From Candidatus Woesearchaeota archaeon (GTDB taxonomy: Archaea; Nanobdellota; Nanobdellia; Woesearchaeales; JAHWIC01), in the NCBI GenBank assembly GCA_019322805.1, contig JAHWIC010000003.1, positions 964 through 64,963 of the forward strand: DNA of 64,000 nucleotides, given 5' to 3'. Position numbers and translations under genes: made by a program. Below the pieces are notes generated by a model. The model worked only from the letters and a program-made list of their open reading frames with translations, was not told the DNA's origin and did not search any database. Shown here piece after piece: positions 10,976-47,078 of the stretch (the first letter of the stretch is position 1; each line of letters starts with the position of its first letter).

Positions 10976-11089
10976 ATCCTCCCCATTAGTGCACAAGGAG
11001 AACGCCATAAATTGCTGACGCAATTTAATTTCACAGTGTCCCTCCCCTAACAGGCTATGCACAACAGAACATACAACTAAATATGCAAG
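10976..11089 (+). repeat. B-element copy 1 (77-nt conserved block plus tail ending in ATGCAAG)
   Basis: 10976-11052 matches 45106-45182 with 2 mismatches. It has an internal hairpin AAATTGC-tgac-GCAATTT (11009-11026). The tail CAACTAAAT-ATGCAAG provides the ATG of the next ORF. Confidence 0.9.
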
Positions 11090-42618: not shown

Positions 42619-44533
42619 GCCGGCTAAAATACACCACACAATAGTCCTGTTGAGGGAAGACAGCGTAAATGAACTTATAACTCTACTTTATGAGCTGGGG
42701 ATATGCGAACTAAAGAAAACTAATGTTGATCTTCCTTCGAAATACTCTTATGAGCTGGTAAAGAATGTTGATGAAATCCAGACAAGGCTGAATTTTATTA
42801 TTGATTCTTTAGAGGAATATAAAGAGATCATCCAGCCAGGAAGCAGGATAAAGGAATTATTTTCACCACAGCCGTTAAAAAAACAAAAGAGCATTCTTTA
42901 TTCGGCAGAAAGGATAATAGAAGAGGTAACCTATCATCTTGACCTGATAGAGCCAAAGATTCGAGAGAGACTGGACAAACTGCAGGAAATAAAGGAGAGG
43001 CTTGAAAATAACAATTTCCTGATCTCAAATCTTTCATTAATACCTGATATAGGGACAAATATTTTTGAATCATCAGATACTGTTAAGTGCTTTCTGGGAT
43101 TAATCAACACAGCTTCTGTGAACAAGATAAAAGGCCCTTTAAAAGACAAAACAGTTATCGGTGTAAAAGAGAAGGATAAAAATCAGTCACTCATAGCTAT
43201 CTTTTCCTTCTTCGAAGACTCCTCATCTGTTGAAAGAGCCCTGCACGAAGTCGGTTTCCAGGAAATAGAGATTCCATTTGAGGATAAGAGACCAATGCAG
43301 ATAATTAACAGCCTGAAAAAAGAAAATGACGAGTTAAACAAAGAAGAGATGAAGATAGGGAATTTCTTAAAGAAAATACAGAAGATTTATGAAAAAAAAT
43401 TAGTTGTATTGGAAGAAGAGCTCAATATTACCAAACAAAAAATAGTTACTTTGGAGAATTTTAAAGCAACAAAGGCATTTTCTGTTGTAGAAGCATGGGT
43501 TCCTGAAAAAGACCTAAAAAAGTTTTGTAACTCAGTAAAAAAGGTTTCAACACAACATTATATTGAGATTGATGAAAAGGATGATGCTCCTACTTTATTC
43601 AGGAATCATAGGCTGGTAAGACCGTTTGAGATGATTACAGAGCTTTATTCTCCTCCAAGGTATAAGGGGTTTGACCCGACACCAATTCTAGCAATCACCT
43701 TTACATTATTTTTTGGTTTTATGCTAACAGACGCTGTTTATGGTCTTATGGTATTAGCATTAGGATGGATGATGTACAAAGGTATTGGTAAAATCAATGA
43801 AGCCATGAAAAGGTTTGCTATAATCCTTGTCGCTTTTGGCATTTCTACAACAATAATGGGTGTTATCTTTGGCTCTTATTTCGGGGATTTCTTCCAGAAA
43901 ATAGGAATACCTATCCCAGTGCCGATTGATTCAATGAGGCAGGTAATGCTAACCTTATCAATAGCATTAGCACTAGGCTCTTTACATCTTATGATTGGCT
44001 TAGTTTCAGGATTCTACGACAATATACACCAGGGAAGCTTTAAGGATGCAATGGCAAAACAGGGTGTTTGGCTTATATTTCTGATAGGCTTGTTCCTGCT
44101 TTTATTAAGGCTAAATACGCCTGGCTTAGTTGCTGTAGGGCTTGCAATCTTACTGCAGATGTTCTTTAATTTTTTAGAGGGTGGCGCTGTTTCATCTTTG
44201 CTCTCTGTATTCGGATTTAGTGGTTTTATAGGTGATTTATTCTCTTATGCAAGGCTGATGGCATTAGCAATTGGTACAGCAGGTATTTCATTGGCTGTTA
44301 ACTTTATGGTTTTCATGGTTATTGACCTGATTCCCTGGATAGGGATTCCGATAGCAATGGTCATCTTTGTGATTGGACATCTATTTAATGTACTAATGAA
44401 TGGTCTTGGAGCATTTATCCATTCAACCAGGCTTCATTTTTTAGAGTTTTTTACAAAGTTTTATGAAGGCGGCGGAAGGACCTACAAGCCTTTCCTCGCT
44501 GAAAGAAAGAATACAATTGTTAAATTAGAGTAA
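42611..44533 (+). CDS. atpI: A-type ATP synthase subunit I (stator a-subunit homologue)
   Basis: 640 aa. A soluble N-terminal half and a polytopic C-terminal half containing the FSYARLMALA arginine motif. Confidence 0.9.
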   Translation: MFRPAKIHHTIVLLREDSVNELITLLYELGICELKKTNVDLPSKYSYELVKNVDEIQTRLNFIIDSLEEYKEIIQPGSRIKELFSPQPLKKQKSILYSAERIIEEVTYHLDLIEPKIRERLDKLQEIKERLENNNFLISNLSLIPDIGTNIFESSDTVKCFLGLINTASVNKIKGPLKDKTVIGVKEKDKNQSLIAIFSFFEDSSSVERALHEVGFQEIEIPFEDKRPMQIINSLKKENDELNKEEMKIGNFLKKIQKIYEKKLVVLEEELNITKQKIVTLENFKATKAFSVVEAWVPEKDLKKFCNSVKKVSTQHYIEIDEKDDAPTLFRNHRLVRPFEMITELYSPPRYKGFDPTPILAITFTLFFGFMLTDAVYGLMVLALGWMMYKGIGKINEAMKRFAIILVAFGISTTIMGVIFGSYFGDFFQKIGIPIPVPIDSMRQVMLTLSIALALGSLHLMIGLVSGFYDNIHQGSFKDAMAKQGVWLIFLIGLFLLLLRLNTPGLVAVGLAILLQMFFNFLEGGAVSSLLSVFGFSGFIGDLFSYARLMALAIGTAGISLAVNFMVFMVIDLIPWIGIPIAMVIFVIGHLFNVLMNGLGAFIHSTRLHFLEFFTKFYEGGGRTYKPFLAERKNTIVKLE

Positions 44534-44556
44534 ACTAGAAGGAGGTAAATAAGAAA

Positions 44557-45042
44557 ATGACTGTAACCCTAGGAACTGTATATGCAGTAAGCGGAGCAGC
44601 GCTTGCATTAGGCGTTGCTGGACTAAGTACAGCATTTGGTGTTAAGGCAGCAGGAGTAGCAGGAGCTGGAGCAGTAGCAGAAAAGAAGGAGCACTTTAAG
44701 AATGCATTAATCCTGCAGGCATTGCCGCAGACACAAACAGTCTATGCATTTATAACAGCACTGCTTATCTTGATGGGTGCTGGCTTATTAGGCGGCGGTG
44801 TAAAAGAGCTAAGTGATGCACAAGGCTTAGCAATGCTAGGAGCTGGAGTGGCTGTTGCAGTAACTGGAATATCTGCTGTAATGCAGGGATTAGTTGCCAG
44901 TGCAGGAATTGTATCGTGCACTAAGAATCCAGATGCATTTGCGCCAAGCATTGTATTTGCTGGACAGTGTGAGACACCTGCTATATTTGGTTTTATTGCA
45001 TCGTTGATATTACTGGTGGTTGGACTTGGAGTGCTAGGATAA
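44557..45042 (+). CDS. atpK: A-type ATP synthase subunit K (proteolipid), duplicated four-helix form
   Basis: 161 aa with two hairpin repeats. Helix 2 has LPQTQTVYAF (Gln at the carboxylate position). Helix 4 has GQCETPAIFGF (Glu retained). Strong SD AAGGAGGT. Confidence 0.9.
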   Translation: MTVTLGTVYAVSGAALALGVAGLSTAFGVKAAGVAGAGAVAEKKEHFKNALILQALPQTQTVYAFITALLILMGAGLLGGGVKELSDAQGLAMLGAGVAVAVTGISAVMQGLVASAGIVSCTKNPDAFAPSIVFAGQCETPAIFGFIASLILLVVGLGVLG

Positions 45043-45058
45043 AATTTTTCAGTGACAT

Positions 45059-45077
45059 TAAATCTCGAAGAGATTTA
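45059..45077 (+). terminator. GAA-triloop hairpin just after atpK
   Basis: TAAATCTC-gaa-GAGATTTA starts 17 nt after the atpK stop. Confidence 0.35.
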
Positions 45078-45105
45078 TGGCGCTCAAAGAAAAATTTTAT
45101 CTTTG

Positions 45106-45229
45106 ATCCTCCCCACTAGTGCACAAGGAGAACGCCATAAATTGCTGACGCAATTTAATTTCACAGTGCCCCTCCCCTAACAAATCTGTTAGAGGTACGC
45201 AACTAAATTAGAGGAATGGAAAATGCAAG
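45106..45229 (+). repeat. B-element copy 2
   Basis: 45106-45182 matches 10976-11052 with 2 mismatches. The tail is GCAACTAAAT, then a 14-nt insert, then ATGCAAG. Confidence 0.9.
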
Positions 45230-45359
45230 CATACTCACTAGCGTTCGTAGCTTACATTTTTTAACATAAGAAAAGGTGAAGTAAAAAATGCAAGCATACT
45301 CACTAGCGTTCGTAGCTTACATTTTTTAACATAAGAAAAGGTGAAGTAAAAAATGCAAG
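45223..45359 (+). repeat. Perfect 65-bp tandem duplication (2 full copies plus first 7 nt of a third, which is the atpE start)
   Basis: 45223-45287 is identical to 45288-45352. Each copy carries ATGCAAGC..., a 13-codon ORF (MQAYSLAFVAYIF) and the AAAAGGTGAAGTAAAAA SD region. The third ATGCAAG at 45353 starts atpE. Confidence 0.95.
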
Positions 45360-45892
45360 TATTCGGTAACGTTGAGGCTTTGAAAAAGGCTATCGAGAAG
45401 AGATACTCTTCGATGGTTAAGGATGTAGAGAAGGATAAGGAAAACCAATTAGCAGAGATAAATGAAGAGCTAAAGGAAAAAATAGGATTGTTAAAGGCCC
45501 ATATGAAGACAAATATTGATGCAGAGGTTAAAAAGACGCATTCAATGATATTGAGTGCTGCGAGGTTAAATGCAAAAAAGGAATTTGAGGAAAAGAGAGA
45601 AGCAATAATTGAATCTGTTTTTAGGGAAGCAGAGAAAGGAGCAAAGGACATTGCGCATACAGCTGAATACATAGGTTTTGTCAAGAAGAATATATCAAAA
45701 ACAAAAGGCTTGACAGTTATAGGGGATAGTGATTATTATAAGGACTCCTTTCCTGGCCTGAAAATTGATAAGGGTATCATAGGATTGAAATTCAAATCAG
45801 AGGAAGTTGTTTATGATTTTGCACTGGATAATATAATTGCTTCAAAAAAAGATGTGTTAAGGCATGAGGTAAGTAAAGTACTCTTTAGTTAA
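45353..45892 (+). CDS. atpE: A-type ATP synthase subunit E
   Basis: 179 aa, with a charged helical N-terminus and a globular C-terminus, in the operon position after K. Confidence 0.8.
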   Translation: MQVFGNVEALKKAIEKRYSSMVKDVEKDKENQLAEINEELKEKIGLLKAHMKTNIDAEVKKTHSMILSAARLNAKKEFEEKREAIIESVFREAEKGAKDIAHTAEYIGFVKKNISKTKGLTVIGDSDYYKDSFPGLKIDKGIIGLKFKSEEVVYDFALDNIIASKKDVLRHEVSKVLFS

Positions 45893-45893
45893 A

Positions 45894-47078
45894 ATGATTA
45901 ATAATACAATAATAAATGCAACAAATGCATTGATTAACTTAACTAATGCTTCTGCAGAGCCTGCTCCATCTAAGCTGGCTTTTTTGGCAAATCCTGGTTT
46001 GTTGGTGTTTGCCTTTTCAGCCTTGTTGGTTGCAGTTTTAATCCTGTTTGTAATTAAGCACGTAACACCTGTAAGTCACTTCCTCTATGCGAATGCAAGG
46101 ATACAGGCAAGAACCAATTTTATGGTTTCAGATGCTTTATCCTTAGAGCTTGCAGAAGCAAAGTCACTCAAGGAATTTAGAAGCTTGTTAAGGGACACAG
46201 AACATGGTGAAGAGCTTGAAAAAAGTGAAGAAGGCTTAAGGCCGTTCCATGTCGCTTTAGAAAAGGGATTTATCAGCTCTATCCTTGAATTGGTTGAATT
46301 AAGCCCTGCTAAATCAAAACCTTTGCTTAAGGCTTATCTGATGTTTTTAGAGGCAAAGATACTGAAAATAATCTACAGAGCAAGGCTGATGAATGCAGAG
46401 ATTGATGAAAGCCTTGTTTACCCTATTGGAAAAATAACTGAGAATTTATTAAGGCATCTTCTAGACACAGAGACTATTGCAGATATTGGCGTTGTTATGG
46501 CTCCTACTGCATATGCGAGGATATTTGAAAAAAAATATGAGAGCCTTGAGGAATTTGAGACAGCAATTGACGAGTTTGTCTTTAACAATTTTGTTGGTGT
46601 TATTGAAAAGACAAAGATGTACGATGGAAAGTACATCATAGATATACTAAATAAGAAAATCGATATATCAAATATATTAGCCCTTTTGAAATTCAGGATA
46701 AGAGGTACAGAAAAAGAACAACAAAGAGACCTTTTGGTTGATAATAAATCAGATCTTTGTTTAAGATTTGATGAATTGATAAAGGCTGAAACACTAAAAG
46801 ATTTTGTAGAGGTGTTTAAAGGCCTTCCTTATCATGAGCCGTTAACAAAAGCATTTGAAAGGTATGAAAAAGACAGCTCTTTATCACATCTTGAAAATGA
46901 ACTTTACAGATTTTTTAAGGAATTTGTGGTAAGCAATGATTTAGGCCACACACTTGGGCCTTATCCTTTGATTTCATATTTAATTAAGAAGGAGTTAGAG
47001 CAGCGTAATCTGTTCATAATAAGCAGGGGTATAGATGCAGGTTTCCCTCCTGAAAGGATAAAGGGGATGTTAGTATGA
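45894..47078 (+). CDS. atpC: A-type ATP synthase subunit C (d-subunit homologue) with N-terminal hydrophobic extension
   Basis: The conserved part starts at FLYANARIQAR. About 60 residues precede it, including LLVFAFSALLVAVLILFVI. Confidence 0.8.
   Translation: MINNTIINATNALINLTNASAEPAPSKLAFLANPGLLVFAFSALLVAVLILFVIKHVTPVSHFLYANARIQARTNFMVSDALSLELAEAKSLKEFRSLLRDTEHGEELEKSEEGLRPFHVALEKGFISSILELVELSPAKSKPLLKAYLMFLEAKILKIIYRARLMNAEIDESLVYPIGKITENLLRHLLDTETIADIGVVMAPTAYARIFEKKYESLEEFETAIDEFVFNNFVGVIEKTKMYDGKYIIDILNKKIDISNILALLKFRIRGTEKEQQRDLLVDNKSDLCLRFDELIKAETLKDFVEVFKGLPYHEPLTKAFERYEKDSSLSHLENELYRFFKEFVVSNDLGHTLGPYPLISYLIKKELEQRNLFIISRGIDAGFPPERIKGMLV

Follow-up and report, generated by a model that had tools for sequence, protein, structure and literature searches.

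Which process placed two identical 65-nt units at the start of atpE in the A-type ATPase operon of a Woesearchaeota genome, and what do the units mean for the translation of this gene? The original prediction saw a perfect tandem duplication of the atpE ribosome-binding region that created two 13-codon mini-ORFs. Judged from our analysis, the feature is a doubled copy of a putative, so far undescribed archaeal mobile element that resembles the mycobacterial MIRUs in its behavior at gene starts and seems to be kin to BHB introns.

The window, a stretch of 64,000 nt, is part of contig C35 of the source genome G000, a MAG of 1.5 Mb that was built from short reads (54 contigs, 37.7 % GC, 92.8 % complete). 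Two genomes of the same genus, G001 and G002, served as reference for empty sites. The genes flanking the repeats belong to an archaeal A-type ATPase operon, in which atpI, atpK and atpC were identified via Pfam. The atpK product is a duplicated (two-hairpin) c/K proteolipid with two ATP-synt_C stretches in Pfam. The gene atpE was named by its position between atpK and atpC; its 179-aa product had a weak match to the Pfam family vATP-synt_E that remained under the cut-off (E 0.031, 14.1 bits). The N-terminus of AtpE is unaltered, reading MQVFGNVEALKKAIEKRYSS in G000 versus MQVFGNVESLKKAIENKYSS in G002.

Structure of the repeat at atpE

The identity of positions 45223-45287 and 45288-45352 was confirmed by the sequence, an exact search, a repeat search and TRF, which reported for 45220-45359 a period of 65, 2.2 copies and 100 % matches. 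The exact pattern search for the 65-nt unit yielded two matches and none in 100 shuffles. The perfect repeat exceeds the two units by 10 nt because AAAATGCAAG is present three times, at 45220, 45285 and 45350 (repeat search, family D3). Each unit is composed of four parts in the order core, inverted copy of the start region (antiX), SD spacer and fresh copy of the start region (Table 1). The antiX and X arms of copy 1 were recovered by the repeat search as the inverted repeats I2/I3, and in I6/I7 antiX is matched to the start of atpE. The junction between the two units reads ..GTAAAAAATGCAAG^CATACTCAC.. (here and below, a caret marks a junction).

Each unit carries, as originally described, a reading frame from ATG to TAA of 13 codons (ATGCAAGCATACTCACTAGCGTTCGTAGCTTACATTTTTTAA, encoding MQAYSLAFVAYIF) and, behind it, a spacer in which GGTGA lies 8 nt ahead of the next ATG. 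The assumption that ribosomes would meet three identical initiation regions had to be corrected: the native atpE leader GAGGAATGGAAA stands before the first mini-ORF, and the element-derived AAGGTGAAGTAAAAA precedes only the second mini-ORF and atpE.

Table 1. Features between atpK and atpE; positions are those of the window
Feature	Start	End	Strand	Description and evidence
atpK	44557	45042	+	Gene 5' of the repeats in the A-type ATPase operon; Pfam ATP-synt_C 1.4e-24, ORF list
Post-atpK hairpin	45038	45101		AAAATTTTTCA..AAAAATTTT; intact in G002, loop with additional ~38 nt in G000
Remainder of the atpK-atpE gap	45043	45222		Mosaic of other repeats
B element	45106	45182	+	CCTCCCCACTAGTGC..CCCCTCCCC; different dispersed repeat, separate from the 65-nt unit
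Native atpE initiation region	45211	45229	+	SD GAGGA 45211-45215, X1 = AAAATGCAAG 45220-45229; now heads mini-ORF 1
Mini-ORF 1	45223	45264	+	Peptide MQAYSLAFVAYIF, stop TAA; from the native atpE ATG across core and antiX
Element copy 1	45230	45294	+	65 nt, insertion phase; absent from G001 and G002, core matches the dispersed family
Core of copy 1	45230	45250	+
antiX of copy 1	45251	45263	+	CTTACATTTTTTA
SD of copy 1	45275	45279	+	GGTGA
X2	45285	45294	+	AAAATGCAAG
Mini-ORF 2	45288	45329	+	Identical to mini-ORF 1; stop 23 nt 5' of the atpE ATG
Element copy 2	45295	45359	+	Identical in sequence to copy 1; sequence, repeat search, TRF, exact pattern search
Core of copy 2	45295	45315	+
antiX of copy 2	45316	45328	+
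SD of copy 2	45340	45344	+	GGTGA
X3	45350	45359	+	Contains the working atpE ATG (45353)
Gene at the atpE position	45353	45892	+	179 aa, intact; ORF list, aligned to congeners

Filled and empty sites

Both congeners carry the same operon without units and with an intact empty site, AAAATGCAAG^TATTTGG. The atpE leader reads ..CAACTAAGATAGAGGTACATAAAATGCAAG^TATTTGGAAATG in G002 and ..GAGAGGCTAAAAAATGGAAGTATATGG in G001, and in G000 it reads ..CAACTAAATTAGAGGAATGGAAAATGCAAG, two units of 65 nt and TATTCGGTAACG. Thus exactly 130 nt (2 x 65) were gained in G000 after nucleotide +7 of the atpE coding sequence (ATGCAAG^), and a comparison of unit numbers in related genomes, which the original prediction had proposed, gave zero in both congeners and two in G000. 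The native initiation region is collinear with the leaders of G002 (..GATAGAGGTACATAAAATGCAAG^TATTTGG) and G001 and continues straight into the first AAAATGCAAG, a repeat that is single in the empty sites. Empty sites in G001 or G002 were obtained for three loci of G000: atpE, a locus on contig C6 and the trpE-like locus on contig C18, with target duplications of 10, 7 and 8 nt, respectively. The empty C6 locus of G002 reads GAGGTGAAAAAATGAAAG^GTTC, and the empty trpE-like locus of the same genome AAAATGGA^AGAG. The units at atpE are an insertion with target duplication and members of a dispersed family. A reading in which spacer and X' represent the native leader, with a hairpin inserted upstream, was rejected on the alignments of the C18 and atpE loci, which have the native leader entering the first X.

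The gap between atpK and atpE spans 310 nt in G000 (45043-45352), as had been stated, about 132 nt in G002 and 62 nt in G001; it has therefore grown through successive insertions. The B element is 97 % identical over 77 nt to G000:C35:11939-12015 (positions 10976-11052 of the window), and partial copies are located on contigs C12, C5, C6, C50 and C48. It is older than the 65-nt units because G002 already has a B-like element at this position. Copies of the ~38-nt piece in the loop of the post-atpK hairpin were present on contigs C7 (four), C5 and C6.

A dispersed family with a common head

BLAST revealed that the 5' half of the unit recurs elsewhere in G000. The part common to the family is the 21-nt head, or core, CATACTCACTNNCGTTCGTAG; six heads are present in G000, two of them at atpE and the others at C6:2727, C18:133660, C16:28835 and C18:104298. 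With up to two mismatches, an 18-nt core was detected in 14 of 41 genomes of the order, and reversed-pattern controls gave 0-2 matches in any genome and 8 in all. An exact 20-mer scan of the GTDB species genomes returned 104 stretches, nearly all in MAGs of Woesearchaeota, Nanoarchaeota or Nanobdellota or in MAGs deposited as 'uncultured Methanosarcinales archaeon'; one was in a Bacilli MAG, probably by chance. In the wider set of instances, direct repeats of at least 9 nt occurred in 26 % versus 8 % of permuted pairs, and inverted repeats of at least 8 nt in 35 % versus 7 %.

Many members sit at start codons. An ATG was positioned exactly 10 nt before ACTCAC in 18 of 129 core instances, compared to at most five at any other offset. 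The start-type pattern ATGNNNNCATACTCACTNNCGTTCGTAG (up to two mismatches) was found in 31 of 401 genomes of the order, a scan that also returned matches whose ATG was lost within the permitted mismatches, and had no control match. The junction is fixed after nucleotide +7 of the coding sequence ('ATGNNNN') of many unrelated genes, which, outside the atp operon of G000, were named from their N-terminal sequences: besides atpE, these are atpB (L072, G313, G233), pyrI (L010, L056), rpl14 (L086, also ATGCAAG), trpE-like, purH, transaldolase-like and flavodoxin-like genes and others.

Other members reside in stable-RNA genes or behind genes. In three genomes, tRNA-Glu(TTC), tRNA-Arg(TCG) and tRNA-His(GTG) are interrupted after T-loop nucleotide 59; excision of CATAC..GAAAG/T (44-46 nt) yields tRNAs of 74-75 nt. 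The intron boundaries were set by the GAAAG/T motif and the tRNA length; ARAGORN was too permissive when boundaries varied freely. On unspliced DNA, ARAGORN found no tRNAs within the window. In the T-loop introns, exon TTCG or TTCA pairs with intron CGAA or TGAA, with the bulges AA^C and AG^T. A copy in tRNA-Met (L021) is located in the anticodon loop. In L142, an element copy of 50-55 nt interrupts a 16S rRNA gene within ..GTAGCGGTAAAA^..^ATCCTCAGAAGACTACC.. and looks like a mini-intron or an expansion that the small-subunit rRNA tolerates. Antisense copies follow directly after the stop of FtsX-like permease genes (G000 C18:104298, spanning 104250-104360; L018-L020, L054, L135, L145); each duplicates the last codons (..ALRYE) together with the stop, often as two or three mutually diverged copies in tandem. 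At L038, a copy adjoins the 3' end of tRNA-Tyr with a 14-nt duplication.

The copy at G000:C16:28789-28904 (minus strand) lies before a RimK-like ATP-grasp gene. Its head is split by an extra piece that has a hairpin of its own (TCTCAAGC AAA GCTTGAGA); this copy therefore contains a nested insertion. Similar doubled heads were observed in L140 and on contig C3 of G233. The groundwater Woesearchaeota MAG JACQXV01 (NC_groundwater_1524) has at least 17 exact-core copies (e.g., L046, L049, L051, L057, L060, L064), many flanked by ..CCACCAGTC.. and then GTTTGAGCATAGCTCAAAC, a burst of one subfamily.

Anatomy and reading phase of the start-type units

Aligned start-type units share the order X, head, antiX, SD spacer and X', with the consensus AAAATGAAAG^CATACTCACTANCGTTCGTAG CTTTCATTTTGAA (A-rich spacer with GGAGGT).AGTTCAAAATGAAAG^, and an SD is present in every spacer. 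The hairpin of antiX and X' is paired in 93 % of the cells of the alignment with compensatory changes at 7 of 10 pairs; none of 500 shuffles scored as high and slid controls reached 36-60 %. Pairing of antiX with the upstream X is slightly weaker (89 %, 5 of 10 pairs). Examples of the pairing between X' and antiX are ATGAATG with CATTCAT (L169), ATGGAAG with CTTCCAT (L167), CAACATG with CATGTTG (L122) and AATATG with CATATT (L095). A riboswitch-like hairpin of X, core and antiX with a conserved loop was also considered and dropped, as the same core was also recovered from within tRNA and rRNA genes and, in antisense orientation, from behind FtsX-like genes.

The peptide YSL[STA]FVA and its frame are the same in all start-type copies because the junction is fixed at +7. 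The 21-nt head is kept in non-coding tRNA and rRNA introns and in antisense copies, so that its conservation is at the level of nucleotides and not of the peptide; its only free positions (NN) cover one third and one first codon position. From ATG to ATG, 27 of 34 units, related by descent and not independent, measure 2 mod 3, spread over ten lengths (41, 50, 62, 65, 68, 71, 80, 101, 107 and 122 nt). In 22 of the 34 units, likewise sharing descent, the mini-ORF stays open to a TGA that overlaps the real ATG (-4, ATGA). Because the units are related by descent, these counts overstate independence. The hairpin covaries and the frame is biased in start-type units, and it is difficult to see how one phase could be kept over so many lengths unless translation of the unspliced RNA were under selection.

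Possible splicing of the units from the mRNA

The introns in stable RNAs raise the question whether the units at atpE are themselves BHB introns of the mRNA, with EndA cutting after each AAAATGCAAG and RtcB ligating the ends; the insertion would then be neutral at the RNA level, removal of 65 or 130 nt restoring the ancestral leader. G000 encodes both enzymes, EndA (PF01974, 99.8 bits) and RtcB (PF01139, 540 bits), the same head opens the verified introns of tRNA-Glu, tRNA-Arg and tRNA-His, and a copy exists in 16S rRNA. Precise excision would recreate exactly the leader type of G002, and the atpE gene is intact without splicing. At the equivalent positions both atpE repeats read TGCA, a self-complementary sequence, and the bulges AG^C and AG^T were assigned by eye. 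However, the flanking helices (h, h') cannot be drawn around this TGCA helix, and most start-type units have TGAA and TGAA there, which cannot pair. Both the frame signature of 2 mod 3 with ATGA and the presence of an SD in each spacer would be meaningless unless ribosomes translate the unspliced RNA. We consider splicing of these units unlikely. A canonical BHB at atpE was set aside as unlikely: only a 4-bp helix and the bulges fit, outer helices are absent, and most sister units fail even the helix.

Translation of atpE and the question of a dedicated regulator

With 65 nt the atpE unit has the usual phase of 2 mod 3, and its mini-ORF stops early, at a TAA (45262-45264 and 45327-45329) 23 nt before the next ATG. 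An ATGA is not possible at atpE because the start is ATGC; neither unit has the -4 overlap of stop and start, though it is frequent in the family. Hairpins of the decoy starts with antiX were predicted by ViennaRNA at -11.9 and -12.2 kcal/mol, near-isoenergetic with the pairing of antiX to the next start (-11.9 kcal/mol; -9.4 for the real atpE start). The predicted pairing of the atpE AUG was about 0.9 with one to three units, the SD being mostly in the loop, and much weaker with none. The fold of the whole leader was not unusually stable in comparison to shuffles (z = -1.13), and we claim no globally structured RNA. Translational coupling has been reported up to about +25 to +40 nt, with reduced efficiency in several studies (review, PMC12548453). 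The folding predictions make a modest damping or re-setting of AtpE initiation the most likely effect of the units, and ribosomes that terminate 23 nt upstream may relieve the damping in part.

The suspected leader-peptide regulator of atpECF, or an alternative-hairpin switch that tunes the translation of atpE-C-F-A-B versus atpK, could draw on these near-isoenergetic pairings (-9.4 to -12.2 kcal/mol), the predicted paired AUG and the presence of such units at atpB in three other genomes. The stoichiometry break after the c-ring gene would be a sensible control point. Yet the units are absent from atpE in both congeners, and no leader ORF is conserved upstream of the orthologous genes in the 62-nt gap of G001 or the ~132-nt gap of G002. 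The same element, core and mini-ORF included, is found on unrelated genes, and the element also interrupts tRNA and rRNA genes. The head is conserved as nucleotides, with the peptide as its by-product. The codons of the mini-ORF have no ligand-like or amino-acid-related content, and the leader had no match in an Rfam scan of window positions 44000-46500 at E <= 10. A cis-regulator dedicated to the atp operon is thus highly improbable. If mini-ORF translation affects the downstream start, a relay common to the family, in which the stop lies over the real ATG in 22 of 34 units, is a plausible basis, and not an atp-specific sensor.

Tandem state and the second copy

The perfect identity of the two atpE units points to a very recent event. 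Of the original slippage explanation, recency was upheld by this identity; the nature of the duplicated sequence was revised from the native ribosome-binding region to an inserted mobile element. The same sequence results from unequal recombination or slippage at the 10-nt repeats and from a re-insertion, and either may have produced the second copy. Arrays with few mismatches between units occur in independent assemblies of other genomes: two units of 67 nt before atpB in G313, with two mismatches and together 134 nt (2 mod 3) up to the atpB ATGA (frame by hand), two units before atpB in G233, and in G325 three copies at exactly 80-nt spacing, in addition to a second array of three units with unequal spacing on the same contig. 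The arrays, present in several genomes and carrying mismatches, are therefore a normal state of the family and able to persist.

The copy number in the contig might still be an artefact of assembly or consensus, the contig being one arbitrary path through a repeat loop and the true genome, or most of the population, holding one unit or more than two. G000 is a short-read MAG of 54 contigs, and two perfect units, together 140 nt, come close to the maximum that a single read can span. The flanking 10-nt repeats, however, are shorter than any assembly k-mer; from a single insertion, an assembler should not be able to invent the junction between units, and hence at least two units would be present in at least part of the population. 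The arrays of two or three units with few mismatches in independent assemblies also argue against a faulty copy number, which we regard as quite unlikely; the suggested pure assembly artefact is likewise unlikely. Two scans of metagenome contigs, with the 5' junction and with the unit start, gave no matches.

Probable insertion of a small mobile element

The most satisfactory explanation, which we hold to be probably correct, is that each 65-nt unit is a copy of a small, gene-less mobile element of Woesearchaeota that inserted recently and was then doubled. In the lineage of G000, one copy would have entered directly after nucleotide +7 of atpE (ATGCAAG^) and duplicated about 10 nt of the target (AAAATGCAAG). 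The inserted piece would have consisted of head, antiX, SD-bearing spacer and X', a fresh copy of the start. The atpE frame stays intact and is probably served by the element's own SD because the inserted spacer carries an SD and X' renews the start. The native SD and ATG are thereby stranded upstream and open a by-product ORF of 13 codons through the head. The second, identical copy may have followed very recently by recombination or slippage between the flanking repeats or by re-insertion into the regenerated target. In the RNA, antiX has two possible partners, the decoy start upstream and the real start. In a typical member, ribosomes that begin at the native site and translate a mini-ORF ending in ATGA on the real start would open the hairpin and be handed on by termination-reinitiation. 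The relay of the atpE copy seems degraded, with a TAA 23 nt upstream and no ATGA; translation of atpE would probably proceed via the element's SD, with loose coupling at most. We infer the mechanism of mobility, the translation of the mini-ORFs and their effect on atpE expression.

The spacers vary among loci, and only the head and the hairpin logic are fixed, which counts against a fixed mobile sequence. A search for two enzyme families, RVT_1 and the Y1 transposase, found neither in G000 (92.8 % complete). The junctions show a preference for ..AAAG^ or ..AAAA^ (ATGAAAG^, CTCAAAG^, GTTCGAA^, GGTAAAA^), and the 3' end of the family (GTTCAAAATGAAAG^) resembles both the commonest target and the T-loop. 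This suggests, as a lead, that the element's own hairpin guides the choice of target, through sequence similarity or through pairing. The burst of copies in JACQXV01 is a good place to look for a mobilising gene.

Relation to known systems

MIRUs occur in variable tandem copy number, known from MIRU-VNTR typing. They are short, gene-less and apparently mobile repeats that insert at start codons inside operons (Brown & Wade 2025, PMC12548453). Their insertion costs little because the MIRU ORF ends with -4 (ATGA) spacing on the host start (PMC12548453). The family described here is likewise short and gene-less, located at start codons in many copies and genomes, and has an ORF with -4 ATGA and a variable tandem number; in the literature searched, this start-relay design was encountered only in mycobacterial MIRUs. 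In contrast to MIRUs, the family is archaeal and has its own SD. Its covarying hairpin reproduces the host start once inverted and once in direct orientation, and its 21-nt head is also that of introns in tRNA and rRNA. At atpE itself the -4 overlap is absent, either lost or never acquired. The likeness is one in the mode of working, and sequence homology across domains is not expected.

For non-canonical BHB introns of tRNAs, a 'transposition' has been proposed (Fujishima et al. 2010, as summarised in PMC4033280; PMC4090602). The route by which archaeal BHB introns arrive is still called open (bioRxiv 10.64898/2026.10.13.758758), and no general route emerged from a 2026 census of the tRNA introns of Asgard archaea. 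The family resembles these introns in its genuine T-loop (59/60) introns that fit the central helix and the bulges, in a near-identical sequence at many sites and genes, and in the presence of EndA and RtcB in G000. It differs in carrying the same head in leaders of protein-coding genes, in antisense after stops and beside tRNA 3' ends, where target duplications and empty sites in relatives represent insertion behavior at the DNA level, and a proper BHB cannot be drawn at atpE.

Like MITE and REP elements (Correia/NEMIS, REP/BIME), the units are small, non-autonomous, hairpin-forming, dispersed, co-transcribed with their neighbours and flanked by a short duplication. Unlike MITEs, they lack terminal inverted repeats: the 5' end is the head, the 3' end a copy of the target, and the sole inverted repeat, antiX, lies within the element and pairs with its 3' end. 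A partner of the RVT_1 or Y1 transposase type was also not found in G000. In Caldiarchaeum, tRNA genes were disrupted by the integration of a 1.8-kb element that encodes a recombinase (Sugahara et al. 2012, PMC3293823). In both cases part of a gene is duplicated by a mobile insertion, and an interruption resembling an intron can result, but the present units have a size of 41-122 nt and encode only a by-product mini-ORF.

Implications

In the atp operon, the units probably lower or re-set the translation of AtpE as compared with that of the c-ring subunit. In the annotation of DPANN genomes, false mini-genes and uncertain start sites result from such units. A single sequence family is seen here both as a verified tRNA intron and as a recently inserted DNA element with target duplication and with empty sites in sister genomes. 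In protein genes it is rendered harmless by other means, a rebuilt ribosome-binding site and start, typically with a probable mini-ORF relay. More tentatively, and with rather more doubt than confidence, we propose that the head CATACTCACTNNCGTTCGTAG defines one mobile family that forms BHB introns in stable-RNA genes and relay-neutralised inserts at the start codons of protein genes. If this holds true, archaeal 'protein-spliced' introns would be propagated by DNA insertion, with direct as well as inverted copies made of the target, and these Woesearchaeota, with their empty and filled sites and arrays, would show intron gain in action, driven by a mobilising activity that recognises the conserved head.
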